NCBI GenBank assembly: GCA_001804285.1
Contig: MHFR01000053.1
Location: forward strand, 15,857 to 79,856
Source of the DNA: Candidatus Danuiimicrobium aquiferis
GTDB lineage: Bacteria > Omnitrophota > Omnitrophia > Omnitrophales > Danuiimicrobiaceae
Length of the DNA: 64,000 nt
Reading direction: 5' to 3'
Part shown: positions 1,423-41,850 of the stretch, one piece after another
Position numbering within the stretch: position 1 is the first letter of the stretch
How the letters are laid out: each line of letters starts with the position of its first letter
Made by a program: the position numbers and the translations under genes
The notes under the pieces: model-generated
What the model was told of the DNA's origin: nothing
Database searches by the model: none
What the model saw: the letters and a program-made list of their open reading frames with translations, nothing else

Positions 1423-1476
1423 GAAAAAGGGAACAGGTCCAGACTCAAGTGACGCAGGACCTGTCCCCTTTTTTTT
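1423..1476. terminator. Hairpin-A family palindrome (gaaaaagggaacaggtcc ... ggacctgtcccctttttttt), terminator-like, immediately 3' of giant gene 1
   Basis: Inverted arms plus a T8 run. It sits 19 nt downstream of the TAA of the 13,117-aa ORF. Its loop is the approximate reverse complement of the loop in the copy at 58-110. Confidence 0.5.
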
Positions 1477-1494: not shown

Positions 1495-2050
1495 TTATGC
1501 GGCAGAACCGGTCAGCTGCTCAGAGCGGATACCTTGAGCGAGAACGTGAATCACAAGATCCAATGCGCTCAGCGCGTCCCGGCTTTCCACCTGAATACGG
1601 TCGTCATGCCGCCTGAGCCATTCAACGGTCTTCTTGGAAAGCGCAACGAGTGCCGCCGTGAAAAGCTGTGCGGCGGTCCCCGTCTCTTTCTCGCCGCGAT
1701 AGCTGAACGGGACTCCGTTCGCATCCTGCCCCGCGTCAAACATGAGGCCCTTGATGCCGGTTACCGCAGTCGCAATGGTAATCGCAGGGTCATTTCCGAA
1801 AAATGTTTCCGAGTTGGGAAGCATTTTATTCGTGAAAATAACCTGCATCTGTTTTCCGGTCACCGAAATAATTCTTCGCACCGGATCATCCTGATTCACC
1901 GGAATGTTATCCATCACCGGCTTCAGCGATGACGGCATTGAAATACGCGGAATAATATGAAGGTTTGAATTTGCCGCCTGGCTCGCGAAGTCATGCAATT
2001 TCCGGACCACCGATTCGGCCCTTGCAGCGGCAACTTTTCCCCCTCGCCGC
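1495..2050 (-). other. conserved C-terminal domain shared by all three giant proteins (gene 1 copy, most divergent)
   Basis: ...FTAALVALSKKTVEWLRR...LAQGIRSEQLTGSAA aligns with ...LLLAGMGLLSKKDIDG...KDALAKAA in gene 2 and ...LLAAAVVLLSKQEIAGL...EEAMKRAA in gene 3. Confidence 0.5.
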
Positions 2051-5000
2051 GACTGCGAGGACAGGTCGCGCGCTTCGGATGACATCATGGCTAAATCTTC
2101 TTCGCTGATTTTGTAATCAACCATTGTCACTTCTTTGATTGACTGAATGGCTTCGGCAAGGTCCGTCGCACGGGCGAGATTTTCTTCGGTAAACGGATCC
2201 GTAGAATCATTCATCCTGTTGATTTCACTCACAACCGCTTGCCGCAATATGGACAACGCTTCTTCGTAAGTCATTCCGGAATTTCTTAAAACTGCCAACG
2301 CTTTTGTAAAACCCGAAATGTCTGTTGCGTCCGGCGTGCGGAGGAAAACCCGGTCGATAATCTCGCTAAATTGAGTTCCGGGTTCCGAGTTTAAAGTTTC
2401 GAGTTTACCGAAAAAGGGGACAGGCAATCGCTCAACTTGAATCATATGCCTGTCCCCTTTTTGTTTGGAACCCGAAACTCGAGACCCGAAACTGTTTTCA
2501 TTGCGCACTTCCGATCTTCCTAAGTCATTATCCGACAACGGCTTAGCGCTCCATCCCAATTTCTGAAGCGCCGCCTCCGATTTTTCATCCTGAACCTTCC
2601 GGTACATCTCAACCAAACGGTCGGCGTTCGCCGGATTAAATTCAAGGAGCATCGCATTCCCTGCAGGACTCACATGAACATCCACCAATTCCCGGAGCCC
2701 GTCGAGCGGTTCATCGAATGTCGGAAGTGACATCACGTCCAGAATCCATTCAAGGCCTTTGACCAGGCTGAGAGGAGAAGGAAAAAGATTCCGGAAATTC
2801 TCGGAAGCTTGTTGAAATTGATCGAGAGGAATGTCATACAGCACAAAATGCGGCTGAAGTGAAAATTCAGGGAAGGCCCCAACCAAAGATTGATTCATGC
2901 TTTCAAGGCTTTGAAGCAATGCCTCCGGTGTCCGCAATTTCTTTCCTAATCCCCGGTAACGTTTCCCCACCAAAAATCCGTCGGGAGGAATCCGGCTGAC
3001 GAGTTTCGGCGCCCGGGCTTCGCGCAAAAGATCTTCCTTCACCAACTCAGCAAGTTTTTGAAGCACCCGGTTTCCGTTCTGATATCCAATGCCATCCTTT
3101 TTGCCGTCCCCGCTCTGAAGCCTATGATATGCGCGGCCGGCCGATTTCTTTTCTAAAATCGCGTGCTCCGCAAAATAATCCCGGACGGACAGCAACATGA
3201 GGTTGTTCATCCTTCCATGGGCTAAATGATGTTTAAACGTATCCATATCCAGCGTCTTCGTTAGGGGATCCGGGTGAGCGCGAAGCATCCCTTCTTCGGC
3301 CTGTTTCGCTAACTTTTTCTGTTCAAGCGCTTCTCTTAACTCAACCACTTTCTGACTGAAAGCCTCGGAGGATAACCGTTTGCCTTCGGGAACGATATTT
3401 CCGATCCATCCTATGGAAGAAAGGACATAATTTTGATTCCGGCCGTTTTGTTTTGCTTTTGAAAGCGCATCGTTCGCGAAGCGCAATCCCCATATATAGA
3501 ATTCATCCAGCCGGTCTTCGCGAAGCTTACCGGCCTCGTCGACCCAATAATTCGAACCGGAAAAGGGGACAGGCATATTACTCAAAAGAGAGCGATTGCC
3601 TGTCTCCTTTTCCATATCCGTCGTCTGCGTGACCAAATAATCAAGCACTTGCTTGGCGGAAACAGCGCCGAGAGAAATGGTGAGGATATTTTCAAACTCA
3701 ACTGCGAGCAACCGCCCGGACGGAAGTTTTAATTCGTTCATGAGTCGCGCAAGTTCGACGCGTTGAAAAAACGTGCTGTCAGGGGAAGATGTCATTCCCA
3801 CGGAAGTGGGAATCCAGCTGGATCCCCGCGTACGCGGGGATGACACTTCTGAGATTGCTTCGACAATATTCTGACCGCCATCTCGCAATGACACGCCGGG
3901 GCCTTGTTTCCTGACCAGCAAATTAAACCCATTTCCATGCCGGACCGCCGCGACGATATATTTCAATCCCATGGTTCGGATCATTTTCTGGAATTCCTGG
4001 ATGTCTTTTTCTTTGTAGCCTTTTAAATCAAGCCGGTAAATCGCATACCGGTTTTCAAATGCCTTTGTGTATAACCCGACCGGTTGAGAAACAAATTCAG
4101 ATCTTCCCATTTTGGGACCGGCAAACTCCAGCACCGCTTCGTCTCCGCCGACATAGCGATGGATCTGCCCTTGCATGACTTGATTCAGGATTTCCCGCGC
4201 TTCACGGTATAACGAGACATTCGCGATGATGACATCCGGCGACGGCTCGTTTCCAAGCGTTCCGAAAAAGCGTTTCCCGAGCGCATCATTCCGGGCACTT
4301 AATAGATCGGAATCGATCATTGAAAAATAAAATTGGTCAAGCGTACCGGCTTTTGCGTGCATTTTGAGTTTCTTAAGATGCTCGACTTCACCCTCCGCCT
4401 GTGATGTAAGCGGATCCGAGGATTCAGTGCGGACTTCAGCTCTGAATTGAGTTCCTAGTTCCGAGTTTAAAGTTTCGAGTTGATCTGTTTGTCCTAACCC
4501 GAAACTCGGAACTCGAAACTCTGAACTATTTTGCAGACGCACCTCTCCCCGTTTCCTTATTGGTTCTGTCACCCCACCATTGCGCATTCCCGGTGGAATA
4601 AACGCATCAACAACGCCGGCTTCCATGCCAATGTTCTGATAAAACCCGTGGTCCGGCTGAAGTGGAACGCGAAGCGTAACGACATTTTTCGGCGTCGCCG
4701 GCGCGAGATATCCTTCGTCCATTTCCCTGAAAAATAAATATTGCCAACCTGCCCCATTTTTCTGAACAAGCTTAAGAAAATTGGTTTCATTGGGATCAAC
4801 TGCTTGCAGTTCGCCTTGGGGATCCACCATGCCAAGCATTCTTAATGCCTCCCCGGCCAAAGCAAATTCAGGATAACGAAAGGATACCGGCGTCAGCATC
4901 CGATGCAAATCCCTCAGCGCTTCCACGGACCCCGCATACGCTTTCACGAAATTCATCACGCTCGGTTCGGCTGCTTCGCGCTTTTTTCCTCTTCCGTCCG

Positions 5001-8000: not shown

Positions 8001-11000
8001 CCGTGTACGTTCTCACCTTTTCGACCTGATCAATTTGGAGCCTTTTGGCCGGTTTCTTCTCTGCCTCTTTCGCTTGAAAGGCTTCAAGAATATCGGCTCC
8101 CCACAAAGGATACCGGGAATCCGCCTCTCTTGATTGCGTGAGCCATATGGCAGAAAAAGCTTGTTGAAGCACCCCTCCGGCATCGTGTCCCGGTTCAAGG
8201 AAAGATTTCGCAACGGAGTCCACCACGTAAGCATACATCCCGGAAAAATTCAATATAGGCGCCGGCGCACCGGTCAAAAGTTCGAGTTTCATTTGGCGCA
8301 AGACTTCGTCGGAAGGCCTCGATAATCCGGCCAAAGCTTCATGCAATTTAGGTAAAATTTCTTCTTTCGTCACAAAAATTTTCTTCGGGGCTTTGGCCAT
8401 CATCTCTTTCACAGAGACATACCTCCCTGCAAGAACGTCTTTATTCAAAGCACCGGCTCCTTCCATATTACGGGCTAAATTAATTTGTTGCGCTATCTCC
8501 TCCGCCGTTTTGTTCTCTAATTGATCGAATAGCTGTCCTTGCTCCGGCGTCAGGCTTTCACGGGGAATCATTAAATTCAATAATGCGGCTGCGTCTTTGG
8601 CCCGGTCCGACAAAAGTACCAGAGGGCCTTTCGAAACACTCGCACCGATGGTTTCAAAAAAGACATTAATGGAATCCCAGAAATCAAATTCAAATGCCGG
8701 CGAAGTGGCAAAATATTCACGGATAATACTTTGATCCGTTTGAAATTTTTCGATCACAATCGATACAAATGCCAGGAGCGCAATGGCATCCGCTTCCCAC
8801 CGTTCGAGCAGCGTCCGTTGATCGGGAGAAATCTGTCCTTCGCGAATTAACTTTTGCAGATTCCGCACCGTTTTTTCCATGGTTAGGAATATTTCAATGT
8901 TTCCTTCAAAGCCTCCGGCCTCATCGTTTCTGTTGAGCACTTCAAAGATCGATATTTCCTGTAAATTGGTCTCGGCGCGCAAAGACGGATCGGCAACAAT
9001 CCGGTCCATGTGAGCCGCATGCATGGCCATCGGCGAACCGGTTTCCTTTAATTCGTCGACGGACTCTGAAATGGCCGTTTCGATCGCACCGATCGCCTGC
9101 GTGGCTTGCGTTTTTAATGTTTCAAAATCATTCGTCTCGCGGCCCGCAACTAATTTTCCGATCATGGCTTTGGATTTTGTATCAAAATTCAGGATATCAT
9201 CTTCTAATGTAGCTATCCGCGCCGGATCTAACGTTAACAAAGGATGAACCCGGGACTGTATGACGCGAAGTTTCGCATCCAAACTTGTTTTCGCTGCGGC
9301 AACACGATCTTGCAATTCGCGAGTCAGTTTGCGATTGAACTTCTGGGAAACCACTTGGGCGCGCTGGCTTTCAAATTCCCGCGCTTTGTCTTCCGACACA
9401 ATCCACTGCTCCGAAATATTTTTGCTCTTGTCGCCGATCGCTTCATTTAATTTCGCGACAAATTGAACCTTGGCGTCCCGGCTTAATAATCCCATAACAC
9501 CCACCGGCAGGTTCTCCATACGGACTCTTCCGCCTTCAATATCAGCTGCCAATTCTTTAATCCACGCAAGATGATCAATCCCTTTGCTGCGTTCTTTTGC
9601 GGCTTGCGCAGCAGTCCGGAAGCGTTCGGGAAACTTCGTAAACGTATTCGCATTTGCCGCCACCAACGTGATTTCAGAAACTTGTCCAAAATACGGAATC
9701 TCGACCGGCTGCTTGAACCGGAGCATGATCCGCTTCAGCCAGTATTGTTCGTTTTCAAGCACGACTTCAATATTTCCGAAATCCGTTTGCCTGCGAAGCG
9801 CCGCGGGGACAGTTTGATTGGTATTCAATCCGGGAATTATTTCCAAGCCCAGATTAAAGGCCTGATTAATTTCATTCCACCACACAAGCTGCTCGGCCGA
9901 CCGGACGGGAATCCGAAGGACCGACCGGGGATTTCCTTGCGAACCGGCTGCGGATCTCAACTGTTCGGGAAGCGTGACCAAAAGTTTGTCAAAAGCTTCG
10001 TCCTTGGACGTGATCGAATCAAGCTCCATTACCCGGATGTTGTCAAAAGAAAACCATTCAAGAAAAATTTTGATGAACCGGTCCGCATCGTGATGGAAAA
10101 AACCCGCCTCTTTGATGAATGATAAAACACCAAAAAGTGTACGACCGATTTCCCCTTCGCTGTGCGAATCAATCCATGAGTCCGTAAACATTTTCCGCAC
10201 CATTTCAATCAATAAATCACGTCCGGCATAGTCACGGGAGATATGTTGATCGAGGAAACGGTTCAGGTCTTCCGTGAAAAGTTTTGCGTTAAATTCCATT
10301 TGCTGGAAAGCGGCGTCCATCCCGCTCTGAGCGGAGCCGGGCAATGCGAGCGCGATGGTCCGTAAACTTCTTGCGATATAAGGAACCAAATCAGGTTGCG
10401 CCTTGGCCAGCGCCATGAGCTCATCGAAAGAGGCCCGGACTTCGCTGCGCTGTTCTTCCCGAATTTTTTCGGCAAGTTGATCGACCTTTTCTAAACCATT
10501 ACGATTCTTCGGCGAAGCCAATAAATTAATCGCGGCCTGGTCCAGCTCATCACCGGCCGAAATTAATATGTGTTTTAATTTTTTCGTAAGCCGGTCCACC
10601 TTTTCTCCGCTTAAAAACCATAAAACGTCGACAGCCGTTCGAATGCCCGAAGCAGGCTCCCCGGACGCGGCGAACCGGCTTAATCTTTCCTGGATTGTTT
10701 TTTCAATTGAATCCCGAAATCCGGAAAAACCTTTTTCACTGTAGATCGATCTCAGAAAAATAAGTTCGGCTGCTATCGGCGAACCATCTTCATTCTGCTC
10801 AATCGCTTTTCGAACGTCCCGAATCACTACGATGCCAACCCCGGCGCTGAGCGGTTCGAGCACTTCGTCAACATACCGGTGGACCGTTTCTTCTTCGGTA
10901 AAAAGATGCGCAAAAACCCTCACTTCTTCAAAAAGTTTCCGGACCTGCTCGAATGAAATGTCCGGCTTAGCCGCAAGATCATGAACATACCGGTACATCT

Positions 11001-14000: not shown

Positions 14001-17000
14001 CAATCAGCGTGACCGGTTGTGCGGGATCGAAAAGGTCGGGATGTAATTCTTTGAGCAATGTATATTTAATAATGGCTTGCCCGATATCCGCAATGTCCGA
14101 ACCCAGCTTTGCGTCATAAATTCCCCGGTTCCATATATAGTCGGGAGCGCGATATTCCGACAAAAGCGGGTCGGACGCCACAAATCCGTCATAATCAAAG
14201 CGGCCCTGGCTCACGTGATGAAAAACAAGCGCAACCAATCGTTCGAACACATCTCCCTTCAGCTGCGCGTAATCCTTGGGTTTCCGCTCCGCCGTGCTTG
14301 CGGTTCGCTTCGCCGGCGTGTCTTTCTCCGTTGTGGTCGACGCAATCGCCATACTCCACTCTTCGGGTTGTTCCGAAAGCTTACCCATTTTGCGAATGAC
14401 GATCGCTCCGACAGAATCCGCATTCTTTTTCACTTCCGAAACAGATAGGTTCTGGGCCACGGCCGGCGAATCTTCGCCGAGCAGCGCGGAACCATTTCGC
14501 GGGACATAGATCTGTAAACCAAAACTATTCGTATCGGCATCGTAAAACGGAACAAGGTAATATTCGAGATGCCTGTATTTTGCTAAACCCGAAAACCGGA
14601 CAGGAGAAATAGATTCTTCCTCACCTCTTTGAATTTTCAACACATAAGCCACATCCTCCAACCCTCGCTGATTGACGGTCACGGCCATTTCCGGCTGCGC
14701 AGAACGGATTCCCGCTAACCATTCTTTATACTCTTGGGGCAAATAGCCTTGAGACATGTCTAATGCATAAGTTTTCTTGACCGGTTTCGGCCGTGCGGCT
14801 GGCTTCGCGCTCTTTTCAATAATACCCTTCCCCCATTCGGCCATCAGCCGCGGAAGTCCCATCCCGAGGTGTTCGGCTATAAATTGAAGCGTCTCCATCG
14901 CCCCTGTAAACATACTACGTAATTCATCGGTGCTCGGTTCGTTTGCTAAGGGTTCGGGTTCAAGCCGGACTTCTTCCAAAACCGCTTCTTCGGGCGCCGA
15001 GACAACCAGCCCCAGCCCTTGCTCCAAAAATTCGCGCGTTGCCGCTTCCGTTTGAACCGGATAAGTGCCGAGGAATTTTCCGCCGGAAATTAAATTTGTT
15101 TTGTCGGGAGTTCTTCGAATAGCTTGTGCAATGGATTGCAATTTTTCATGATCTTTCAGCGTTGTCTCATTCTTTTTTTCGCTGACCGACAGGATATAAA
15201 TATGTTTGCTGCCGGGCGAAACATAATACACAACGCGAAGGAATCCCTTCGTTCCGCTCCCCAATGGAAAATCTCGAAGTGGATTTAAGTCCGCAAACTT
15301 CGGCGTCTCGCTGCTTCGTCCTTCGAGCAATGTCACCAATTTGGCCCGAATGTCAGGCCCGTAGGCTTGTGCCCGCGCCGTTAATTCGCGAAACGCCTGG
15401 TCCGTCAGAACAAGGCTCCGGTCCGTTTCAATCCTCACCCGGAGCGGGGAAATTTCAAGAAGCTTGATGTGTCCCTTCCGCAATTGACCGTTTGCGCGTA
15501 AATGTTCCAATCCCGGAGGTAAGTCGTCAAAATGGCGCGTACGGATTTCGAACCGGTCATTTCTGAAATCGTTTTCCAAAGGCCCGGCTGCCCGTTCGAA
15601 AGCCGCCGTTAAACTGTGCTCCGTCAATTCAGGACTTACCTGGATCACCCGGACATTCCGGTTGTGCCTTAAAAGTAAACGCATGGCCGATGAAATATTT
15701 TCCGGCAAATTTTGCCAGGCACCGGTTCCGACGCTATATTTTGTACTCGTCAAATAAACGGTTTGACTACCCTGATTTTTTTCCCGGATAAAATGAACCA
15801 GCGGTACCGTGGCAGTACGGGCTTCGGACCTGAATTGAGTTCCGAGTTCCGAGTTTAAAGTTCCGAGTTTACCGAAAAAGGGGACAGGCATATGACTCAA
15901 GTTGAGCGATTGCCTGTCCCCTTTTTGTTTGCTGTCATTCCCGCGGAAGCGGGAATCCAGCTGGATCCCCGTTTGCACGGGGATGACACCCTTGTTAGCT
16001 TTAAAGTTGCGAACTTCCGCCCGACCGGCACCCCCCAAACGTTGGGCACGATCAAACACACCCACGTTATGTTTTGCCCATCGCCTGATTTCAGGATCCG
16101 TCGAATTTAAAAACGTTTCCGAGTCCCAAATATTAATCAAAATGTCCTGCGCACGCGAAATCCCGACATTCCGGCGTTTCTTCCCGTCCACCGGGTCCGC
16201 CAGAAATCCGACCGATCCGCCCTTGTTTGAACGGACCCACGATAAAATGACTGCTTTGTATTCCGATCCGATCGACGAATCAACGGTGATCACTTTAAAA
16301 GCGCCGCTTGACACATCCGCCGAAGGAACAAATGAATTCCCAAGGTCAAGATCACGGAGAAATTGCGTAGCCATTTCCTTGGTCGGCTGTGCGATAAAGC
16401 GCCGGACATCCGCATCAAATAATTTCATTTCTTCCTGAATTATTTTTTCCCGCTCGGGATAAGCTTTTTGACGAAAAGTCGGATCTTCACGGCTGAACTC
16501 CTGGAAAAGATTTTCATGCATCCGGAAACGGACAAATTCTGATTGGAATATCAAATTCAACGCAGCGGCAGATTCTGCGGAAATCGCCGGCGGTCCTTGC
16601 GCAGAAATAACAGATGAAAACGCTTCATGAATTTTCGAAAAATGAAGCAACGCATCCGAAATCATGTCAACCTGCCTCTGATAAGGCGAAATGACGGCAA
16701 TGTCCTTCGCCGCGACACCCTGTCGATTGATAAGCCGGTTCACCCAGCTCACAGCTAAGTTAATTTCGCCGCGGTTAAAGCGGCCCATTTCATCCACTTG
16801 CCCGGTCTTCTCTTCCCGGTAAATTCCTCTTGTATCTTCTTCAATGACGGTACCGTCGACATCACGCCCGGCAATTAATTTCCCATGATAAAAATAATTA
16901 ATGAGATCCACGATCAAACGGCCGGACCGGCGTTGAATATCGAAAAAATAAAAGGGCGGCTGCGTCACGCGAAAAACTTCCGCATCCCGGGTGAAAAATA

Positions 17001-26000: not shown

Positions 26001-29000
26001 GATCTCCCTGATTCATTAACTGATCCATCCACGCCGGGTGAAGTTCCATTAATAGAAGCCGGCTGAGCACGTCCATCGCTGCCTGGTTCAGGCGTTTCAT
26101 CCGTTCCGCTTTCGTATCGTCTCCCACATGTTTGGAAAGCCGCCTGACAATGTCTTCGTATTTTTCAGAATACCGTTTGATTTTTTCTCTTAAGACGCTC
26201 ACGCTCGTGATCTGCTCAATCCCCCGAATGGTCCGAATGGACAAAAAGTTGAAATTTTCTTTTGTAAAATCTTCGCGCAATGTTGCGAATTGGCCGACAA
26301 GCCGGACACGGTTTCTTTCGATCTGTTGAAGCTTGGTTTGATCGGGACGTTTCTGAGATGCCTCCTCCTGATACTCTTTCCGGTTGTAATAATATCCGCG
26401 TGCGACGACACTCAACCGGTGAATCAGCGTCCCTTCTCTTTCACGTCCTGCTTGCGGGCGGGCCGGCTCCTCCATGAAATCTCCTTCTTGTCCCAAAATC
26501 CGTTCCTCTCGCAAAGGCTTGCTGCGAACCATCATCGGCGTTCGCTCGGCGGCGGCTTGCCGGTCAACACGATTGAAATAAATGAAAGAACTTGTGATGT
26601 CGGAAAGAAACGTGGCGTCGGAGGAAACTGTTTTGGCGAGTGCAATCCTTGACTTGCCGGCCGCTTGCTGTTCATAAAGAACCGCTATTTTTTTAATTTG
26701 CTCGTTGATCGTTCTGTTTCTTCGAATCCCGTTTTGTCGAAGAACGTCCCGAAGGTAATCGGTCACGGCAAGGCGAATGAGGAGCGAGGCAATCAATCTG
26801 GTTTTTTGGGCGTCTTTTAGTTTTAAAGTTTCTAGATATTCGTAAAATTTATTCAGAATGACGAAGCGTCCTTCATCATCGATCCACGCCAGTTGACTCA
26901 AATCCGTATCCGCATCAAAATAATTCTGGTAAGCGCCGGCCGGAATATTTACTACAATCACGCCTTTCGCATCGATTTTCTTTTTCAAATGATCCAGGAT
27001 TTTTTGCTTGAATGGCCCGCGGACCGTTTCGCTTAACACCGCGCGCGCTTCCGGATTTAATTTCGACGACAACCGCTGCGGCAAGTTTGAAACCCCTCGC
27101 ATGCGTCTCGCGGCTTTCAGCGCTCCGGCTAAAGTCTCTTGAGTTAATTCTTCAAAATTGTTTGCGGCTTCAATTAATTGCGTTCTTTTCTCGCGCAATG
27201 CCTGCTGTTGGTTACGAACTTCGGCCCTGGGTTGAGTTTCGAGTTGATCTCTTTTTCCTAACTCGAAACTCGGAACTCGGGCCTCGGAACTGTTTTTCAG
27301 GCGCGCTTCGCTTCGCGGGACGGCAATCGCCGAATTCACCTGCATCTTCTTCGTCACGTTCGAAAATGCCATGTAATTGCCGATCTTCCCCGGAGGCGTA
27401 TGATTCGGAACCGCAATCCGATGTTCCTTGCCATCTGCGTTAAACGTTACCCTGTATCCTTTTCCGTCCAAAAGCCACGAACTACCCTGTTTGATTTCAA
27501 AGGAAAATGAAACGAGACCGCCGGCGTCGCTTTGAACCGTCAAAACCACTTTTTCATATTGATCAAAATCCGGAAGATATGGCGACAGCCATCCCCCGGC
27601 CCAATTGCTTTCCGCATTCATCGGAATTAATTCGATTCCGGCACCCTCCGAAAGCTGAGCGGCATTCAAATTCCCGTCACCGTGCATCACGGTATAATTG
27701 TTTAATAATTGAGTCCCCGTGCCCGCGGGAACTTCCGGCGCTTCGGGTGCAACCGGGGGCTCTTCCGGCATTTCACCCGGAGGCACCTCAGGTAAGAACA
27801 GCAAATCCGGCAAACCGGGGACTAACTTCGCGCACGCGCCAACAAATCCGGCTAAACCGAAATAAGCAGCGGTCTTTATTAAAAAAGTCCGGCGGGTAGT
27901 ATGTTTAATGTCGCGCATCTTCGGAAGAGACCTCAATGTCTCATCCGAAGAAGTGCTTGCCGCAACCGGCGGCAAGCGCGCTTCGGATCTGCTGGGGCTA
28001 ACAATTTCTTCAGCCGTCAGATTCCTAAGCTCATCATGGTCATACGAATGAAGTGGTTGATACATATTGCCTGGCGCAACTTGAACGCTGCCAGTCCGCT
28101 CAATCCAGCGGCTCGCGTGAATCAAACTATTCCACAAAGCCATTTCAACGCCGTTGAAAATATAGGCTCCCCTCTCTTTTGCTTGAATGAGAAGCGACGT
28201 TGCAAGTGGCATCCGAACCATATCAATCACATACATTCCCTCTGATATCCCGTTCAAGTCTGAAAACGGAAGCTCTTTTCCAGATGCGTTGATCAAAACA
28301 TCAGCATCCGCAAGCAAACGATAAAACTGCTCCTCATTTCCTGTAGCTGCGGTCATGCGGATTCCGGGATAACGTTCCCTCAAAGTTTGTGCGAATGCCT
28401 CTGCCTGCTCCAAATTCTCTTTGGTTTCAACAAGTCCCAAACTACTGACACCTTCCGCCGCTAACGCTTCCCCCGTTTCCCGCCCTGCGCCTCCAGCGCC
28501 ACCCAACAGGAGAATTTTTTTTCCTTTAAATCCGCCCACTGCATCTCCATACGCATTGATAAAAGCAATACCATCGATTGCATCACCCAGCAACCGCCCA
28601 TTTGATTGTTTAGTAACATGATTGACCGCTCTCACCATTCGAGCTCGCTCAGTTTGCTCGTCAAGATATTTCCCAATCGTTCGCTTCCAGGGCTGTGTCG
28701 CAACCGCGCCTATCACACGAGGATGGCTTCTCACTATATCAATTAATTCCTTGAGTTCTGTTTCACTTTTAACTGCATATGAAATCCTAAGCATATCAAG
28801 CGGAGTTTGGCCCGTGACTTGCGGATAAATTTGCCGGAAGATGTACTCATATTTTTTGTTTGCATTTGTTTTCATCACGTTCGCTTCGTCGCCGATAAAT
28901 AATGCAACTTTTGTATCTTTCGTATACGCCAGTCCGTGTTCTTTCGCGGAAGCTTCCAACCGTTTCTCAAATTCAGCTATTGATATTGTGTCCCTCGCTT

Positions 29001-32000
29001 CGGCCCGGTTTTTCCTCGATTTTCCCTCCAATTGCTCAAGAATGGCTGCAAACAAATCAGGCTCTGAGAATAACAAAAGTTTTTCTTCTCTGAAAATTTC
29101 ATCTTCACCTGTGCGTTTTACCTGCAGACTTAGCTGTCCCCCAAGATGTCCCCCTGAAGGAATAATTTTATAATCGAAACCATCTCTCGCCCATGTATAG
29201 ACATCGAGTGTCGCAACAGGCTTTCGAGAAATATCTCCCGGTTTTAACAGCTGCAATTTCCGAAGTATATCTTTGAAAAATGAAGCCTGGGCCCGTTCAT
29301 TTGCTTCTTGTTCAGTCGTTGTGTCGAGCAGTTCCGCCACCAACTTCTGGCCTGTGAGACTCTTGGGATCATCATCTCGTTCTATGCGATATGTAACTTC
29401 AAAGTTATGCCCATCAACCTCATGATCTTCTAATGCATTTAATTTTTGTTCTAAATCCTCGGTCCATTTACGAGGTTGCTCACGAAGCAAGAATATAAAC
29501 TGTTTTAACGCTGTTGAAAAAAAACCAAACCAAAGATTCCACGTTGACCCAATGTCATGCCCTTGAGTCAATGCCCGGTGGATCCGTTCTAATTCTTCTC
29601 GTGACGCATCTATTTGTGTTAAAACAAAATCACCTGTCTCTTGGGTGCTCAAATCACTGGGTTCAGCAAACGCAATGCTTATTTTCCCTTCTAAGATATC
29701 ACCCTTTAGGAAACGAACGACTACCCTTCCAAACCCTTTTCTTGCAGCTGCTAAAATAAATACGGAATGGAATTGTTCTCGAATTTCTTCCGAAGATTGA
29801 TCTTTTCCTACCCGCGCTTCGGCCCGGCCAGCCAGAAAATCAAATCCGTACGGCCTGTATGCCTTTGGATACGGATAATCCTTTTCGAATAAGTAACGGG
29901 GAAACCGCCTAATCCGCCCCTCATCTTCAAGCGCAAGCATATGATCGCAAAAACGCCGGACGGCCGCGTCAATAATTGCCAGATTTTCGGCGCTGAATTC
30001 CGTCCCCGCAGGGAATAATCCGGCGCCCAGATATCCTTTTACACCGTGCGCTTCATCCCATACACGGAGAACTCCGCCGATCTTGTTTTGTTTTTCATTT
30101 ACGTCCTTAATTTGAATAATCGAATCAATAAACACCACAACTTTGTCAGCCCGTTTTCTTTCTTCCGTTTTCTCAGCTTTCCTCGACGCCTGCAATTGGT
30201 CCAGATACCGGCCGAGCCATCTAAAATCTTCGGGAACGATAGGAGAATAGTCCTGCGCACGCTTGGCTGAGAAAATCGCCCTTAGCGTTTCCAAAACATA
30301 CCAGTGCTGACGACGGAGCAGGCCCGGATCAAGAGTCATGTCTTTCGCGATTTCCGCAAGCTTTTCCCGCAGCGAACCAGGCGCCAAGCCGTAGTGCCTC
30401 GCCAATATGGATCTTTTATGTTCATCTAACCGCGCCAAAGCGACTTCGAGCCATTGAAAGAATCTTTCGCGGGTTTCAATATCTTCCCCTTTGGCTTGCG
30501 CATCGCCACGGTCCGGGATGGCCATATTCCTTCTGATTTTGTCGGTGAATTCCTGAAATGGTAACAGGGATTTTGTGCTTGTTCCCAGCGCCTTGCGCTT
30601 GTCATCAAATATTTTTTCGAACTTTTTACGAAAGACTTCCAGATCTGTTTCTAAACTTCCTTTGCCGAGAATTTTTTCGGCCTCGTTAAGGCTCCGGAAT
30701 GCATCATCTATGGCATTTTGCGGGATGGCAACCTCCTCACCGTCCAGACCGCCCCATCTTTCTGCGAGCATTTCAAAAATCGTTGCCCGCACAACCCGGT
30801 GAAGAAACATCAACAAAGGCGTTTTGGCTTTTTGAGTTTTTTTAGCTTTTGGGGAGGCATAATTTTTAAGCGCCAGTATCAACGAGATCCAAACCTGATG
30901 TGCGAAATTCTCCGGCTCAAGTCCGACAGGGATTCCGATCACCTTTGCGAGCAGCCGTGCTTCATCAAATTTTCGCTCGATGGTTCGTTTAAACCGGCGG
31001 CGATTTGGATTGGCGTAGAAAGCAGCCAATTCCCTGATGGCCTCATTGCGGACGGCCGGATCGGAGGAACGTAATTGTTTCACATATCTTTCCAACCTCG
31101 CTCGTCCCCGCCCTCTTGCGCCTTTTTTCGTTCTGACCTCGCTCCGGTTTTTCCAGGGCGCTTTCAGGAATCCGTCCAGTTTCGTTTGCCGGACGTAGTC
31201 ACGCCATGCGGCGTACCGGGCAGGAAGAGGTTCCGCCTCGCTCGGGGCCAGGTCCTCTGCCGTTAAATTAAAATCAACAATCGCTTCAAATAATTCTTTG
31301 GCTGCTGCATTTATTTCCGCATTATTTTTCGCGTCCGACCGTAAAAACATATACATCGTTCCGACGACCATTTGCGCAATCTCCTGATTCCGGACCGCTG
31401 CTTTCATCGCGTGATGAAGCGTAACCATCACCTGGTTCCTGAAAATTTGCCGCTGTTCGGGTTTCATCACGGGCGACAGGAACAAAGTCATGTGCGTTTG
31501 AAGCAGCCGCTCAAAATCTTCCAGCGCCTGGCCGTGAGACATTTGGGAAGCTGTCGATTGAGACATTTCAATAAACGCTTGCGTCATTTGCCTTAAAGCA
31601 TTTGCTATGGCTTTGCGCGACAACCGGCTGTCTGCAAGTGCGGACAACGCCATTTGAAAACAGGGAATTTCTGTCATGAGTTCGCCGGCATCTTTTTTGG
31701 TGATCCCGTAAAGTTCAACATCATCAGAAACGGCCCTGACTGTTGCGCTCCGTTTGCCTTTAAAAAGGATGATTTCACCGTACAGATTAGGCAGGTTCGG
31801 AACCTGAAGTGTTTCACCGTCTTCGAACTCTACTTGCACGCGTCCGTTGGTAACAAAGAAAATTAAATTTTGACCGTCCGAATACTGATCCAGCCCGGTA
31901 CCGCCCACAATAAATTCTGTGCCGTTTGGAATTCTCTTTAATTTCTGCGTCCGGCCGGCAATTGTAGCGAGATCGTCATCACTCAAAAGATATAGCGGCG

Positions 32001-35000
32001 AATCCTCGTTCTCTGCCAATTTTTTCAGGATATCCAGTCCAATTTGTGTACGCGCTTCCGCCCTTGGATGAGTTTCGAGTTGAGCTGTTTGTACTAACTC
32101 GGAACTCGGAACTTGAAACTCGGGATTATTTTCCTCGCGCACTTCGCTCCGCCCGCCCGTCACGGCAAACGCCGGCGTCCAATCGTCATGCGCGGTGCGT
32201 TCGAGGTATTGCAAGTCAGGTTCGGGCGAAACCAGATCAGGCGTTTTTCCCTGCTCTTCAAAAGGATTGACATAAGCGGCGTGCAAACGCAGAAAAACAG
32301 TCCAGATTTTGGTCGTAAAATCTTTATCATTAAATTTCATCAATTTTTCGACCACCAAACTCGCTCGCTTCCGACGTTCCCGATAACTTTCATCCGAATT
32401 CCCTTTCACCACAAGAATATTCCATGCCCGGTTAAATTCCTCATGGCCCCCCCCTTCGTCTTCCGCGAGAAGCGCGCCCAACTCACTCAATAACCGGAGC
32501 ACATTGACTCCCTGCAGATAGGCGCCTTTTTGTTCTTCATCTTTTGGCATGTCGGGATACCAAAAAATATTTTCACCTGACTTCCGTTCCGAAAAATTGA
32601 AACGCCGGTACAAATGGTCTTCGAGAAAATCATCGCTGAAACTGAATAAATCAAAAAATTGAAGACCTTTCACTTTTTTCTCTTTTTGTTCCGGATCCAT
32701 CATGCCGGGGTAAAGCATCGCAAGAATCGCCGTCGCCTCCCCCAAATTTTCCCGGGCAAGTTGCAGAGTGATATCTGAATAACGCTGGTTGGCAGTCTTC
32801 TTTCCTTTTGCATTGTCCACTTGATGCTGGAACTCATGCAAAAGAATTGAGGCGAGGTATCGCCGGACAACCTCATTGAGCATAACAGGCCCGGAAACAA
32901 TTTTATGGTCCTGAAACTCCTCCTGAAAATCCCGTTTGAGCGCTTCCTCGAGCAAAGTCATTAATTGGTCTCGTTCATCCTTCTGAAATTCGTCTTTCCA
33001 CCTCGGCGCGTTGGGCTCGACTTTTCTGCGTTCATTCGTTTTAAGCGTGTCCCATAAATCGGTGATTTGGGCGAGCATGTCTTCTTTGCTCATTTTTCCG
33101 TCGAGAGCCGCAGCGATGATATTCAACATCGAAAGAATGCTCTGACAATATTCGTAAACGAACTCCACATTGACATAAGTCAAATCGGACCCATACTCAT
33201 GAAACGCCATGTGTTTCGCCTCCCTCACCGCGACGGCCGGATAAACGAACATGACGTCATATTTCCCGTCGCCCGGATGACGTTTTTCGCCGCTTTTTTG
33301 TTCCCACGACTCGTATGTTTTGTAGCGGAAAAGGTCAAAACTCCAATGTTGATCTTCCGTTTGCCTTGGATAATAGGTGAGCCCGATAAAATGAAGCGCA
33401 TGAATGCGATCAATAGTCTTGAGGTCCTCCCGGCGGGCTGATGGGTTGTTTGCGGCATCCGCCACGTTCCTGACAAAATCCTTGAGGCCGTTAATCACCT
33501 TGATTTTCCGGTCACTCCGCCAGGCGGGAAAATTGCCATAAAGCGAATGGAAGATTTCCGAAGATATACGGACAAGCGTTTCGGAATTTTTCTTTGAAAT
33601 TTGGCCGGCTCTGGCCCTGGCCGCCCAGGCCGCCAACACTGATTGCGCGATAAAAATCCCGTTACTTCCGGCATCTTTCATTTTCTGGATGGCTATCTTT
33701 TCACGCTCGCCCTTTGCCGCGGGTCGGCCTTCGAGATACGAATCGGCCATGAGAAGCGCACCGGCCACCAAGATCACCACTTTCTCAATAAAATCGGAGA
33801 CGTTATCTCCGGCCAACCGGCGCTCTGAAGCAATGGCTTCGGCGCGAGTTTGAATTTCAGATCTGACAGCTTCGAGATCAATCGCATGATTCTTAACTTC
33901 CTTTTCAATTCCTTGTTCGAGAATTTTTAACACCACTGCTGCTGCAACCCGGGATGTCCGGTCGTCCCTGAAACCTGAATATCCGCTCATTGAAACAATT
34001 TTCTCTACACATCCGGAAACTCCGAGCCCCGCAAAAACAGCCGCAATTTTAAAAAATCTCCGGCGAGTGGGAAAAGCATTGCGCGCTTCGGCCCTCGCTT
34101 GATTCCCTTGCGCCTCGCGAGGACTCTCGTTCGTTTTGATTAATAACTGGTTGGAACTACGTTCAAGGTTATGAACTTCGGCACGTTCAGCTAACGCTTG
34201 GTCCGCCAAAGTACTCTTGCGCGCTTTGATTGATAACTGCTGCGGCTTTTCCAAAACAGGAACAGGTTCTGCGTCCATTGAACCAGAACCTGTCCCCGTT
34301 TTTGGTGTAAGGTTACGCGCTTCGGAACGGAACTTTGTTGCTGAAATTTCAAAGACAGTGGAAACCGGTTCATCTTTAAACCGCTGAAATCTATTTTTCT
34401 CGATAGAAAGGTCCCCAAAACTCGAGAAAACCTCGGACAGTTCAGCCCGATCAAAAAACCGCTGCTGTTTGCCTCTTGAATCCACGATAAATCCGCCTTC
34501 GGTCGCCCGCAAAATACCGCCCATCTCGTGGGTTGTATGAACTTTTCCGGTTTGTTCGTTCGCTTCTCTGTATTTCCAATCGTCGGTTGAACGAACAACA
34601 ACAAACACCTTGCCGCCCGGACGCAATATTCTTCTGATTTCTTGTATCCTTTGAGCAAGCGTTGCCTGATCCAAATAATGAAGCGAAAGATGGGCATACA
34701 CAGCGTCGAAAGATTCACTGTCAAAAATAAGCGGTTCATGAAGGTCCTGCAGTTGAGCTCTTAGGTGATCAGAGACTTTGAATTCCCGCGCGCGGCCGGC
34801 AATATGCTCAACTGCTTCTGAAATGAAATCGGTCGCCGTGACATCATAACCGTGCATTGCAAGAAACAATTCATCATGCCCCAACCATGCGCCCAAACTT
34901 AAAATTTTAGATCCTTTCGGTAATAATTGATTTCTCACGATCCTACGCGCGCTTCCATTGACAGTATGCCGCCGGGCTCGACCGATTCCTTCCGCCTCTT

Positions 35001-38000
35001 TATGAAAATCCGCAATCCAAATTTCCATTTGTTGATCCGTCATGCGCGCTTCCGACCTTTCAGCGGCAACTTCTGGCCTTTGCCGCGGCTGCAAGGACAG
35101 GTCGCGCGCTTTGGCACGTTTGAATGTTTCCTTCGAAACATTCAAAGTACTTTCGCGCATTCCGATTGATAACCGGTTGTCACTCTCATTATTGTTACGC
35201 GCTTCGGTTAATAACTGCTGTGGCTTTCCCGATTCGATGCGCGCTTCCGACCGTTGATTGACGGAAATCTCCAAAGATTGAATGGCCGATCCTTCCTGAA
35301 GTTCTTCAAGCGAGACAGCAACTTCAACCTTCGTCAGATATCCAACCGACGCTTCGACCGTTCCGCTCCTCATTTCGGTTTCATCTAACCCATGATATTT
35401 CATTTCGCTCAAATTGAAATCAGCCCGCCAAAGAATCCCCGGAGCGCCGCCGTTACTCGCCGTTTTTATTTTTTGAGCAAGATCCTTTAGCCCGCGTTTG
35501 CTGAAAAACAATCTGTCATGACGCGCCAGCCAATCGATATTTGCAATGTTAAACACCAACCGTTTCCGGGCTTGCATTCCGCCCCCTGAAATTTGAAAGA
35601 AAAGGGGAATACTTTGTCCTGCCTCCCTGTCTTCCCAAAAAACAAGCACGGCTTCTTTATGATTGCCCGGCAAATCAAAACCGAAACCTCCCAACGCTTC
35701 CGCTATCTCTTCCGCACCTTCAAGATACAAAGCACGGAAACGGTTCCGGCCGGCTTCGCCGTCAAACGGCTTTAACGATGAATCAAAAAATTCGACACCC
35801 GCGACTTGTATTCCTTCGATTCCGAGCGGTTGCTGTGATACAGCTTCGTCCTTCTGTTCCGGCTCGACCTCCAAGTTGAGATCGAACATAGAATTCTCAT
35901 CGATTTGACCCTGGGATCCTTTTCCCACCCCCAAATTTGAAATCCATCCCGTCGGCACAACGTGAATCCCTCGGAAATGCAATCCGGGGCCCGACGGAAG
36001 CTGATCATCTTGTTCTTGATTGACTCGCGTAAAAACTTCAGCACGCATTTGCTTCATGGCCCGAAGTTCATTTTCCGGATCGTATCGATCAAAAACAGGT
36101 TTCATGACATTAAAATCGTAGACCCCTCTATCGGCATAAAAAGAATATCCCGTTTGAGACCCCGCGGCCCCGCCGGATATTTGAAGGAAAAGCGGCTCAT
36201 GCGTATCTCCCTGAGAATGCCACATCACGAGCATAGCCTGGACATCGCCGGTGAGATTTAAGCCCAATCCGCTCGAAATCACTTCCGGCTGCCTTAAGTG
36301 AAAAACCTCATAAGAACCATTTAACCCTTCCATCGGGAAAGTTTGTTTTTCGCCCACTCCGATATTGACACCTTCCCAATGAAGATTCCTGGCTTCAGAC
36401 CGTTTCATCCCCGGCTTTTCCTGAGTCTTGGCTCTTTTGCTCTCAAGCGCCGCCGTGATTGTTTTCCTGGTTAAAACAGTAAAGTCTTCATCTTCCAACT
36501 GTCTCCGAAACAACTGCCCCTCTTTCCAATTCGCCTCGCCTTGTTTGGCATTCAATAAATCTAAGAACGTCAAGAAGTCCTTTCCAACTATTTGTTCAAG
36601 CTCTGATTCCTTGATGCCCAACGCCTCGGCTACCAATTTCATCAGAGATTTCCGCGCGATCTCTTTCCTCGGAAACGTCATTCTTTCGTCTTGTTCCCGC
36701 AATTGCGCCGTTAGTTTGACGGCATAAACATTAATAATCGCATCCACAATGTCCTGATTTGAGATCGGACCGGAAACTGACTGATCCGGGCTTTTTCCTT
36801 TCTTCGCCCGGGTTTCTGAGCGGACGGGACCTTGCCCTTCATCTGATAAAAAACTTTTCGGCTTTCTCATGTTCGCTTGCGGAGGCGAAACCTTCCGATC
36901 CACTCGAAGTGCTGCGCCGCGATCATCAAATTCCAGAACTCCCATTTCGGCAGCTTCTTTTAAGAACCGATCTATCAATTCATGAAGCCCGTATTGTTTA
37001 CCTTCAATTAAAGAAACTGCTTCTTTGACTTTGCCAGATCCTGCGCGACTGAATACCTGCTCTATTTGGCGTTGGAAAAGTGAACTCACATCAATGGACA
37101 GAAAAGGCCTTGAAGAACGCCGATCAGGCAATTCCAATTTGTAGTTAAGCTCCAGCCCGTGCGGCGCTTTTAATAATCGAATATATTGATTCAAATCTTT
37201 CGAACGAATCCGGAAGTCGGGCCGACTGTGTTCAAATTCAATCGTATAGCTTCTGCCCGTTTGTCGATCCCCAAGCATCGTATAAATAGGCTCACCCGAT
37301 TCTACCGGTAACTGCTCCCACAGGAAGGCAGCCAATTCTTCTTCAGACACAGCCCCGAACATCTGTTCCAGCTGCCGGGAGTACGGATATTGTTTCTCGC
37401 TAAGTTCGGTCAATATCGTTTCCGGCAAGAATTTCTTTGATTTCAAAAATTGAAGCAGCAAATAAAATCCGGGTATGCGCGGCACAGAAATTTGAGGAAT
37501 GAACGGCTGATCATCCTGAAAAATGATCCCTTCGCTCGTTAATGCATCAGCCCCCCAATTCAATTCCCTGATGCTTTTCATTAATTCTATCACTACAAAA
37601 AACGACAAGTGATCGACGTCCAAATGAACGTCTGAAAAAGACATGTCAGGAATCGACACATAAAGCTGATCTCCTTCCTTGATACGGTTCCTGACGGCAA
37701 ACGCATAATCGTAATCATCCCAAACTTCATACGGGATCAAATCCACCGTTATTCGATGCACGCCCATTTTAGCCATTGCTTTTCTGAATCGAATTCCGAC
37801 AGGGCTCGAAACAAATAATGGCAAAAGTTCATGTCGGCTAACTTTGGCGTTTTCAATCAATGTTGATTGATATTCCAAAAATGCATCGCGAGATGCAAAT
37901 GAGCCGCCAAACATGGGATCCACCCGTACGTAACGGAGAATCGTCTCGGCGTCTTTTGCCTGAACAACTTGGATCGAAACCACCGGTACATCGCCTTCGT

Positions 38001-41303: not shown

Positions 41304-41850
41304 TTACGCGGCTTTGGCGAGAGCATCCTTCGCGGCTTCTTCGAGAACCAAGCGGAGAGTCATGGCAAAGAATTGATTGAATGCATTGGCATTCACCCCG
41401 CGGAAAATATTTTGTTCAACTTGTTGAATCCCGTCGATATCCTTTTTACTCAATAAACCCATTCCCGCGAGTAACAAACCAACCGGCGTTACACGATCAA
41501 GACCTTGATATGCGATTTTCCCTCCGCTCACATACGCATCTGCAGCCAATTTAGCCGCGTGTGCATTCGCCGTCTGAACCTGGTCTGTAATCACCACATT
41601 GGCATCTCGAGACGCATTCATCGGAAATAGTGAAATCTGATAAGTCTTGATATCTCCTTTTGTCCGGGCGCGGTTAAATTCCCGTTCAATCGGTACCCGG
41701 TAATCACGCTGAATACCGGGCGAAATAAATTCAAAACGAATATTAGAATTTAGAATGGCAATATTAGCAACTGTCTTTGCTAATTCACTAAAATCTTCCC
41801 GAAACTTGTCTGTCGTCTTATCATCGGATGTTATATAACCGGCGGGAATA
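41304..41850 (-). other. conserved C-terminal domain (gene 2 copy)
   Basis: NSNIRFEFISPGIQ...ANVVITDQVQTANAHAAKLAAD...VGLLLAGMGLLSKKDIDGIQ...LVLEEAAKDALAKAA. Confidence 0.5.

Follow-up and report, generated by a model that had tools for sequence, protein, structure and literature searches.

Three giant open reading frames (ORFs), p1, p2 and p3, lie in tandem in a 64,000-nucleotide (nt) stretch of contig MHFR01000053.1 (hereafter the window) from Candidatus Danuiimicrobium aquiferis, a member of the Omnitrophota. The most informative feature of this region is a recurring five-residue peptide separator, R-x-E-x-R, together with the polyprotein-like architecture of the three products. Here, we describe the separator, the units that it divides, and the palindromic DNA elements translated within the same frames. 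The ORFs are probably operon-like polyproteins cut at the motif, in which palindromes of the genome at large have accumulated in tolerated loops and spacers. An earlier note on this DNA had instead read the separator (as RSEAR) and the palindromes alike as insertions resembling MITEs (miniature transposable elements with inverted repeats).

All long ORFs of the window are stop-free and on the minus strand, and G+C content is even throughout (43-51%).

1495..40848, minus strand, giant ORF p1, 13,117 amino acids (aa)
41304..55607, minus strand, giant ORF p2, 4,767 aa
55765..63996, minus strand, giant ORF p3, 2,743 aa, with separators and the C-module (below), without the N-module

The separator and the units that it divides

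In the three ORFs, the pattern R[SAP]E[AVTMS]R occurred 46 times, 25 of them in p1, for which the earlier note had given about 17. The narrower form R[SA]E[AVT]R was observed 43 times (0.23 expected from composition; shuffle maximum, 2). All sites are listed below.

38092..38106, minus, RAEVR, p1 aa 915
36808..36822, minus, RSETR, p1 aa 1343
36388..36402, minus, RSEAR, p1 aa 1483
35239..35253, minus, RSEAR, p1 aa 1866
35044..35058, minus, RSEAR, p1 aa 1931
34315..34329, minus, RSEAR, p1 aa 2174
34081..34095, minus, RAEAR, p1 aa 2252
32137..32151, minus, RSEVR, p1 aa 2900
32050..32064, minus, RAEAR, p1 aa 2929
31132..31146, minus, RSEVR, p1 aa 3235
29812..29826, minus, RAEAR, p1 aa 3675
28993..29007, minus, RAEAR, p1 aa 3948
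27976..27990, minus, RSEAR, p1 aa 4287
27301..27315, minus, RSEAR, p1 aa 4512
27214..27228, minus, RAEVR, p1 aa 4541
24466..24480, minus, RSEVR, p1 aa 5457
24289..24303, minus, RSEAR, p1 aa 5516
24196..24210, minus, RAEAR, p1 aa 5547
22750..22764, minus, RSEMR, p1 aa 6029
22582..22596, minus, RSEAR, p1 aa 6085
16009..16023, minus, RAEVR, p1 aa 8276
15817..15831, minus, RSEAR, p1 aa 8340
10435..10449, minus, RSEVR, p1 aa 10134
4429..4443, minus, RAEVR, p1 aa 12136
2503..2517, minus, RSEVR, p1 aa 12778
52797..52811, minus, RSEAR, p2 aa 933
52695..52709, minus, RAEAR, p2 aa 967
50796..50810, minus, RAEAR, p2 aa 1600
50544..50558, minus, RAETR, p2 aa 1684
48822..48836, minus, RAETR, p2 aa 2258
48522..48536, minus, RSEVR, p2 aa 2358
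48066..48080, minus, RSEAR, p2 aa 2510
45792..45806, minus, RSEAR, p2 aa 3268
43602..43616, minus, RSEAR, p2 aa 3998
43560..43574, minus, RAETR, p2 aa 4012
42798..42812, minus, RAETR, p2 aa 4266
42456..42470, minus, RSESR, p2 aa 4380
42360..42374, minus, RAESR, p2 aa 4412
63061..63075, minus, RSEAR, p3 aa 308
62941..62955, minus, RAEVR, p3 aa 348
61033..61047, minus, RSEVR, p3 aa 984
60232..60246, minus, RAEVR, p3 aa 1251, hydrophobic helix directly after
58768..58782, minus, RAEAR, p3 aa 1739
57580..57594, minus, RSEAR, p3 aa 2135
57484..57498, minus, RAEVR, p3 aa 2167
56893..56907, minus, RAEAR, p3 aa 2364

The degenerate core GAAG[CT][GCT]CG was in frame 0 in 40/43 matches on the coding strand, and only 5 matches were found on the other. 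Codons within the motif are mixed (all six Arg codons occur at the first position, and Ser is encoded by both TCN and AGC), with some bias towards GAA-GCG-CGC. At 37/46 sites, neither 24-nt flank resembles the DNA flank of any other site; at the other nine, the repeated flank is on the spacer side only, facing the neighbouring repeat. Because most flanks are unrelated and the rest are one-sided, the motif borders the repeats and is no part of them. Being in frame, on one strand, written in mixed synonymous codons and set in unrelated flanks, it is a peptide-level motif and not as a palindromic or MITE-like DNA family; its excess over expectation, its codons and its flanks together overturn the earlier assignment of RSEAR to such a family.

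The motif is a sharp five-residue island; in the positions next to it, small residues alone are favoured (-1, -2 and +1). No enrichment of Met was seen past the motif, and separate translation initiation of the units was rejected on that ground. An origin of the motif as a target-site duplication was likewise rejected, since the flanks are unrelated and the members of a pair differ systematically (RSEAR first, RAE[AV]R second).

Separator spacing has a median of 295 aa (interquartile range, 178-474; 599 intervals), with a minor class of spacers shorter than 100 aa (90/599 intervals). The following units were recognised between separators.

34330..35043, minus, S-adenosylmethionine (SAM) methyltransferase unit, p1 aa 1936-2173
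27991..28992, minus, shikimate-dehydrogenase-like unit, p1 aa 3953-4286
16129..17706, minus, SF1 helicase domains (AAA_11/AAA_12) within the unit p1 aa 6090-8275
32152..34080, minus, twin-arginine translocation (Tat)-lipoprotein unit with HExxH, p1 aa 2257-2899, paralogous to p2 aa 2515-3267
45807..48065, minus, paralogue of the p1 HExxH lipoprotein unit, p2 aa 2515-3267
42813..43559, minus, methyltransferase unit, p2 aa 4017-4265

The 238-aa methyltransferase unit of p1 is about the size of standalone TehB-type enzymes, and solved AroE/YdiB chains are covered almost end to end by the match to the 334-aa shikimate-dehydrogenase-like unit. In relatives, a GNAT unit and a PCMT unit each lie inside one separator-bounded unit, as does a complete PAS-HATPase-receiver hybrid kinase (relative P0010). 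Because each of these lies within a single unit, the separators mark the boundaries of proteins, not of domains. Few Pfam domains were found in p1 and p2, and the HExxH lipoprotein unit had no match in a word-indexed protein search. A sigma-factor-like identity for the unit p1 aa 3240-3674 was dropped for want of support in a PDB sequence search.

Several units begin with targeting signals of their own.

34009..34065, minus, Tat motif and lipobox (RRRFFKIAAVFAGLGVSGC), 5 aa past RAEAR
27832..27897, minus, Tat motif and lipobox (TRRTFLIKTAAYFGLAGFVGAC), 26 aa past RSEAR
47865..47933, minus, Tat motif and lipobox (NRRTFMKYAGYAGGLFGLVISGC), 44 aa past RSEAR
45675..45743, minus, signal peptide and lipobox (..AILPLAAGC), 16 aa past RSEAR

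All four internal lipoprotein-type signals of the window (three with a twin-arginine motif) thus lie 5-44 aa past a separator. Hydrophobic segments started within 20 aa after a separator in 20 cases (7.8 expected) and ended within 20 aa before one in only 3. A strict Tat-signal search in relatives placed 2/5 signals after separators, too few cases to weigh.

The variable units are framed by conserved terminal modules.

38107..40848, minus, p1 N-module, signal peptide then Q-D-A-H .. L-E-G-G .. G-G-F-H
52812..55607, minus, p2 N-module, modelled with an EreA/ChaN/TraB-like core
1495..2031, minus, p1 C-module, ending -SAA
41304..42359, minus, p2 C-module, ending -KAA
55765..56892, minus, p3 C-module, ending -RAA
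1498-1503, 41307-41312 and 55768-55773, terminal Ala-Ala codons of p1, p2 and p3

The N-terminus of p3, which has eight separators, is a single hydrophobic helix. The signal peptide of the N-module ends in a conserved Y-A-Q/E. In an AlphaFold model of the module (predicted local distance difference test [pLDDT], 65), the first strand of an alpha/beta core is followed by a conserved His and the second by a conserved Glu, with a further conserved His in G-G-F-H; among 150 family members, Q[DNS]AH was conserved in 134, xxEG[GAS] in 103, and GGFH in 128. A Foldseek search of the PDB ranked an EreA/ChaN/TraB/TIKI-like group first, with no significant match, and RRSP, an effector of multifunctional autoprocessing repeats-in-toxin (MARTX) proteins, was among the structural neighbours; no sequence-profile match to the EreA/ChaN/TraB/TIKI superfamily was found. 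Like EreA, ChaN, TraB-PrgY and TIKI, the module conserves His/Glu/His, presumably equivalent to catalytic residues; unlike them, its core is split by a helical insertion of about 360 residues. We take the His/Glu/His pattern to be the signature of the TIKI/TraB/EreA superfamily, and since that superfamily includes proteases, the N-module is a candidate processing enzyme. The structure model of the C-module (pLDDT, 55) was too poor for a fold search, and the C-module had no match in the word-indexed protein search; neither module matched Pfam or NCBIfam. The C-terminal -AA or -SA recurs in about 100/150 relatives, and a terminal Ala-Ala is reminiscent of the degradation tags that ClpX or tail-specific proteases recognise.

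A profile of the p1 and p2 N-modules matched at least 7,246 proteins among 1.84 billion cluster representatives (782 at E<1e-30), the closest named homologues being Candidatus Omnitrophica/Omnitrophota proteins from metagenome-assembled genomes. Most of the 150 members listed are 2-8 kaa (thousand aa) long, with the module at the N-terminus. R-x-E-x-R was present at no less than 5 times the expected number in 81/104 members of at least 2,000 aa, and the preferred version differs per member (RAEVR, RAETR, RSELR, RQEMR, RSEMR, RSESR, and others); long homologues that share the motif are <50% identical to each other. Many members without R-x-E-x-R repeat [GA][AS]S[LM]G instead (GASLG, ASSLG, ASMGK; relatives P0051, P0071, P0072, P0091, P0107, P0110, and P0132), which is apparently an alternative separator. 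In one distant relative (P0046; L088, 8322-10004), a phage-type integrase gene and an HTH_17 excisionase-like gene are found immediately upstream of the family gene.

Palindromic elements within and between genes

Hairpins with stems of at least 11 bp numbered 38 in the window (6-14 in ten codon shuffles), and about 35 strong hairpins lie inside the three ORFs (about 10 in codon shuffles). Their RNA folds at -35 to -41 kcal/mol (z, -5.5 to -7.9), and no Rfam match was found at gathering thresholds. Hairpin A (AAAAGGGGACAGGC-loop-GCCTGTCCCCTTTT) has 13 copies in ORFs and 2 intergenic ones, and is missed by a simple terminator scan because its loops exceed 8 nt. Family C is a 56-nt double hairpin (TGTCATTCCCGCGGAAGCGGGAATCCAGCTGGATCCCCG..CGGGGATGACA; 5 copies), family B a hairpin (GAGTTCCGAGTT..AACTCGGAACTC; 4 copies), and the RDLSSQ cassette a 72-nt direct repeat family, D6 (4-5 copies); several other palindromes are present once or twice. 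The earlier note was right that multi-copy palindromes are real, and its count of at least eight families was too high: ttgatWaataac.., gtgaccagtgac/gactgccgactg, and ggcacaagagcacaag, listed there as recurring, were each found only once or twice.

65..102, hairpin A, intergenic, downstream of aguA
1424..1473, hairpin A, intergenic, 22 nt past the p1 stop, T-runs on both strands, terminator-like
2411..2462, hairpin A in p1 (KGDRHMIQVERLPVPF)
3559..3613, hairpin A in p1 (EKETGNRSLLSNMPVPFS)
15875..15926, hairpin A in p1 (KGDRQSLNLSHMPVPF)
22619..22670, hairpin A in p1, 99% identical to the 2411 copy
34259..34296, hairpin A variant in p1 (GTGSGSMDAEPV), spacer between separators 2174 and 2252
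39859..39910, hairpin A in a loop of the p1 N-module (EKGTGSGSAESEPVPFS)
40008..40064, hairpin A in the p1 N-module, within a 17-aa insertion
40554..40610, hairpin A in the p1 N-module, in a loop where other lineages have other palindromes or none
56828..56880, hairpin A in p3 (KKGTGIVQQSKQLPVPF), 9 aa past separator 2364
58851..58890, hairpin A variant in p3
59685..59744, hairpin A-like element in p3, 24-nt perfect arms
60987..61031, hairpin A-like element in p3, 5 aa past separator 984
62213..62262, hairpin A variant in p3
3790..3845, family C double hairpin, read SSWIPTSVGMT
15933..15988, family C double hairpin, read VIPVQTGIQLDSRFRGND
22674..22729, family C double hairpin, read VIPVQTGIQLDSRFRGND
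24313..24368, family C, half-decayed, read SSWIPTSVGMT
57507..57562, family C double hairpin in p3, between separators 2135 and 2167
4449..4527, family B hairpin (GAGTTCCGAGTT..AACTCGGAACTC)
27225..27290, family B hairpin, between separators 4512 and 4541
32060..32125, family B hairpin, between separators 2900 and 2929
48840..48906, family B hairpin in p2, ending at separator 2258
2011..2082, RDLSSQ cassette
35047..35118, RDLSSQ cassette, between separators 1866 and 1931
50445..50516, RDLSSQ cassette in p2
52698..52769, RDLSSQ cassette, between p2 separators 933 and 967
38723..38767, G/C-rich palindrome (PLPEGEGRGEG), p1 insertion not in p2
54056..54119, CACAAG palindrome, variable loop of the p2 N-module
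55321..55381, palindrome, first variable loop of the p2 N-module
56414..56487, longest inverted repeat, 36-nt arms, 92%, in p3

True intergenic DNA holds families A, B and C and the RDLSSQ cassette too. On an independent contig that overlaps the 3' end of p1 (L001), hairpin A lies between convergent genes (19779-19818), with A- and T-tracts as in a bidirectional terminator, and family C between divergent genes (17862-17920). A stem-loop with a T-tract, of the REP or terminator type, is thus present at this convergent site and at window 1424-1473; a terminator acting only on untranslated RNA is a plausible role for hairpin A. Within the ORFs, the reading phase varies between copies (two or more phases), hairpin A being translated as KGTG..PVPF or KGDR..PVPF and family C as VIP..GIQLD or SSWIP..GMT.

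In N-module alignments, the palindromes are clean insertions, carried by one paralogue or homologue and missing in up to eleven others; the 17-aa insertion with hairpin A at 40008-40064, for example, is missing in p2 and ten other homologues. The module has about six variable loops in which the palindrome-type peptide differs by lineage or is lacking, and presence and absence were seen among paralogues and distant homologues. No consistent direct repeats indicative of target-site duplication were found around 20 hairpin copies, and no transposase was found among the genes of the window or L001. Because of the intergenic copies, the varying phase, the clean insertions and the lack of visible target-site duplications, the palindromes are conserved as DNA, not as peptide. 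The earlier note's comparison of their in-frame translation with Rickettsia palindromic elements (RPEs) is borne out by the first three of these observations, and the last counts against its description of them as MITE-like.

Within 60 aa of a separator lie 15/35 hairpins (random positions, 22%), and by our reading of the translated spacers, about 10/13 short spacers between paired separators hold a recognisable repeat element. The junction cassettes are mosaics (window 15859-16019, 22603-22760 and 2395-2467): the hairpin A copies at 22619 and 2411 are 99% identical, and the family C element adjoining the former, with its flank, is 97% identical to the one at 15933. This mosaic structure suggests recent gene conversion or recombination among junctions 6-20 kb apart, and suggests a route by which cargo units may be shuffled in frame. 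The palindromes are better seen as passengers, presumably neutral, that are concentrated in short spacers between paired motifs. The earlier idea that the elements sit at domain boundaries is true as a statistical tendency and not as a rule, and the palindromes do not build the boundaries, which are set by R-x-E-x-R and divide whole proteins, not domains.

Locus and assemblies

The setting is a cellular chromosome, with housekeeping genes of an ordinary kind downstream of p1 and of the following gene, aguA.

124-1260, aguA, agmatine-deiminase-family gene, downstream of p1

An assembly artefact, which the earlier note had named as a threat to its own repeats, is unlikely because 11.3 kb (the 3' end of p1 plus aguA, this being the part of the window that overlaps the compared contigs) is 100% identical in contigs of several independent metagenome assemblies, and because one 13,117-aa gene call is listed on L001. 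Scaffold_951 of another independent assembly, ANAN16, has an extra in-frame 114-bp segment inside p1 (window 8334-8365; L002, 2814-2927), flanked by a 32-bp direct repeat (EEILPKLHEA, 28 aa, EEILPKLHEA), which may be a strain variant or a scaffolding artefact.

The best matches of aguA among GTDB species genomes were in Methanothrix/Methanosarcinales archaea (48-51% aa identity). Methanothrix (Methanosaeta) is also the prey genus of the cultured Omnitrophota Velamenicoccus archaeovorus, and a gain of aguA by gene transfer from the host lineage is possible, judging from these similarities. The plus-strand ORFs antisense to p2 and p3 (52836-53552, 238 aa; 60532-61203, 223 aa) are probably chance ORFs. 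The 455 nt that separate p2 from p1 contain a further hairpin, with a 13-bp stem (41015-41059) and of no relation to families A-C.

An orthologous locus without the insertions was not found in GTDB genomes or JGI metagenomes (N-module profile search), nor by the aguA search of GTDB, where matches reached <=51% identity only (Methanothrix and other lineages). The C-terminal 977 aa of p1 had no match in JGI metagenomes, and no record matching the exact p2 product was found.

Competing explanations and related systems

The explanation that we consider probable has two parts. In p1 and p2, a conserved N-module combines a signal peptide with a putative EreA/ChaN/TraB/TIKI-like core, all three ORFs close with the conserved C-module finishing -AA, and the sequence between is a variable string of gene-sized cargo units in one frame, separated by R-[SA]-E-[AVT]-R. 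The motif would be a proteolytic processing site at which a putative protease releases the units, which would explain why units start with their own Tat or Sec lipoprotein signals. Ordinary hairpin elements of the genome (REP-like, terminator-like) would have been inserted into the giant genes, with only frame-preserving, stop-free copies persisting, because a frameshift or stop destroys kilobases of downstream coding sequence. They would survive where the peptide is harmless: on the surface of the N-module, in its variable loops, and chiefly in spacers that lie between paired separators. Cutting at both separators would leave the spacer peptide to be discarded; its sequence would then be free as long as it is in frame and stop-free, and insertions may accumulate there.

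Several points weigh against this explanation. No cleavage product was observed, and R-x-E-x-R is wholly missing from some family members. The signal peptide of the N-module looks cleavable, so the module may function extracytoplasmically and would then be unable to release units in the cytoplasm; because p3 combines separators with the lack of an N-module, any protease would need the ability to work in trans. Only 43% of strong hairpins are near separators, and with no orthologous locus found, no recent gain of an individual element was seen.

The alternative carried over from the earlier note, that all eight signatures, RSEAR included, are MITE-like repeats transposed in and co-opted as Gly/Ser/Pro-rich inter-domain linkers, is very unlikely and, for RSEAR, largely refuted. 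It rightly holds that the palindromes are real and in frame, and it gains something from the nine separators that abut a repeated element, as composite cassettes in which the separator is sometimes duplicated as DNA, and from over-use of the core GAAGCGCGC (CGC is the last Arg codon in 25/46 sites against a 17% background). Against it stand the mixed motif codons (TCN and AGC for Ser) on one strand and in one frame, the unrelated flanks at 37/46 sites, the lineage-specific peptide versions in the 81/104 long homologues, the content of the units (whole proteins, not domains), and the lack of target-site duplications visible around hairpins. It is less improbable, while still unlikely, that the proteins stay intact and that R-x-E-x-R is a structural or recognition element, such as a hinge, a docking site for chaperones or export, or a translational pause. 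Tat/lipobox and signal-anchor signals normally need a free N-terminus, and internal segments of both kinds are found here immediately past the motif, with strong directionality (20 after, 3 before); paired motifs that bracket 14-80 aa spacers filled with translated palindromes also fit a structural role poorly, and lineage-specific versions with small residues at -1 and +1 are as expected of a protease site. An intact chain would agree with the lack of any protease linked to the motif, with the N-terminal signal peptide, which suggests export of the whole chain, and with published work on Omnitrophota, which, in its accessible text, presents giant membrane-anchored proteins and merely speculates on cleavage.

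The hairpins may themselves be selected, as terminators upon translation failure, RNase sites or in-frame recombination junctions. This is compatible with polyprotein processing, and we regard it as a possible if doubtful addition. The A-tract/stem/T-tract of hairpin A is the same inside ORFs as in the copy past the p1 stop and in the one between convergent genes, the vicinity of separators is twofold enriched in hairpins, junction cassettes 6-20 kb apart are mosaics at 97-99% identity, and the cargo of the family is extremely variable (bioRxiv 10.64898/2026.06.07.730766, in the text accessible to us). On the other side, many copies lie in lineage-specific N-module loops, which in different homologues contain unrelated palindromes or lack them; strong hairpins are almost absent from the module in the two relatives examined as DNA; and copies vary in phase and decay. 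Such patterns suggest tolerated insertions rather than a conserved function. It is extremely improbable that the giant ORFs are artefactual, whether as a chimeric assembly, as decayed pseudogenes, or as genes mis-joined through different decoding. The few Pfam domains and the 114-bp difference in one assembly could be cited for it, whereas 13,117 stop-free codons at 48% G+C are not chance, the 11.3-kb overlap is identical across assemblies, thousands of homologues share the architecture, and the genes on either side are of an ordinary kind, as are their stops. Both an alternative genetic code and an assembly artefact were rejected.

Polyprotein processing of the window's ORFs could be part of a wider pattern, which we put forward tentatively and at somewhat less than even likelihood: Omnitrophota giant genes may be protein-level operons, in which dozens of ordinary proteins are made as a single chain and cleaved at a lineage-specific code, with signal-routed products and with junctions of paired separators and genomic hairpins that serve as recombination cassettes. 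Some lineages would use [GA][AS]S[LM]G as the cleavage code in place of R-x-E-x-R, and each released protein would be routed by its newly exposed signal sequence. Junction cassettes that swap whole proteins in frame would explain the extreme diversity of cargo.

Among known systems, MARTX toxins and viral polyproteins have conserved ends, variable and independently folding cargo, and short protease sites between units; the chain of MARTX and of many viruses includes the protease itself. Conserved terminal regions here likewise frame variable units with short separators, at which release would occur. There is no sequence relationship, however, and the scale differs (up to 13 kaa here and >100 kaa elsewhere in Omnitrophota); unlike that of MARTX, the cargo in the window looks housekeeping or regulatory, some of it with bacterial Tat or lipoprotein signals, and is not toxins.

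REP/BIME and SPRITE elements are short stable stem-loops across the genome, often between convergent genes and extragenic by definition. Hairpin A resembles them in having the A-tract/stem/T-tract of a bidirectional intrinsic terminator, whereas most copies in the window are intragenic and translated. SPRITE is a pneumococcal terminator-like mobile repeat. Both kinds are listed in PMC10969869. RPEs (Ogata et al. 2000, 2002, as summarised in PMC10969869) are palindromic repeats found in non-coding DNA and in genes, with 44 insertions reported in R. conorii (PMC10969869). Like RPEs, the palindromes of the window are multi-copy repeats in non-coding DNA and, in frame, at permissive positions of genes, present in some homologues and missing in others. 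Unlike RPEs (about 100-150 bp, with one conserved peptide per family 1-10), the window units are 38-60 nt long and read in several phases, the host belongs to the Omnitrophota, the density is far higher (about 35 strong hairpins per 62 kb of coding DNA), and hairpin A doubles as a terminator-like element. In this comparison, the palindromes match the defining behaviour of RPEs while being shorter, hosted by an unrelated organism and much denser.

Giant ORFs are known in Omnitrophota, and cleavage by C39 or S8 peptidases has been suggested without evidence, as far as the accessible text of these reports goes (bioRxiv 10.1101/2023.11.21.568195, PMC10066038, bioRxiv 10.64898/2026.06.07.730766). 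Named types in these sources include 'Archaeovorins' (West-Roberts et al. 2023) and 'multi-enzyme metabolic clusters' (Nielsen & Lui 2026), and SecA_DEAD-like and C39 or S8 peptidase domains are reported there as common. The ORFs of the window resemble the published proteins in their Omnitrophota relatives, their tiling of unrelated enzyme domains, and their signal peptides and transmembrane segments; unlike in them, no C39, S8 or SecA domain was detected in p1 or p2 (Pfam, E<0.01). Term searches of the giant-gene preprints, in their accessible text, did not find the separator motif, the pair of N- and C-modules, or in-frame palindromes, and a string search with the motif strings and family C peptides returned no relevant context in the searchable literature. 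Neither the separator motif nor the in-frame palindromes were found described in the searchable literature.

Omnitrophota giant genes reach 147,000 codons, and whether they yield a single protein or cut pieces is a recognised puzzle in the accessible literature, which offers no way into it. With the in-frame palindromes, the phenomenon known from Rickettsia reaches a distant phylum, where its density is much higher, and the palindromes mark the parts of the chain that tolerate arbitrary sequence. A separator with gene-sized spacing turns the puzzle into testable predictions of where cuts would fall, how many products would result, and which of them would carry export signals, and it offers a straightforward way to divide and annotate giant ORFs, thousands of which could not otherwise be read. 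Should cleavage be confirmed, these genes would represent polyprotein expression on a genomic scale in free-living or epibiotic bacteria.

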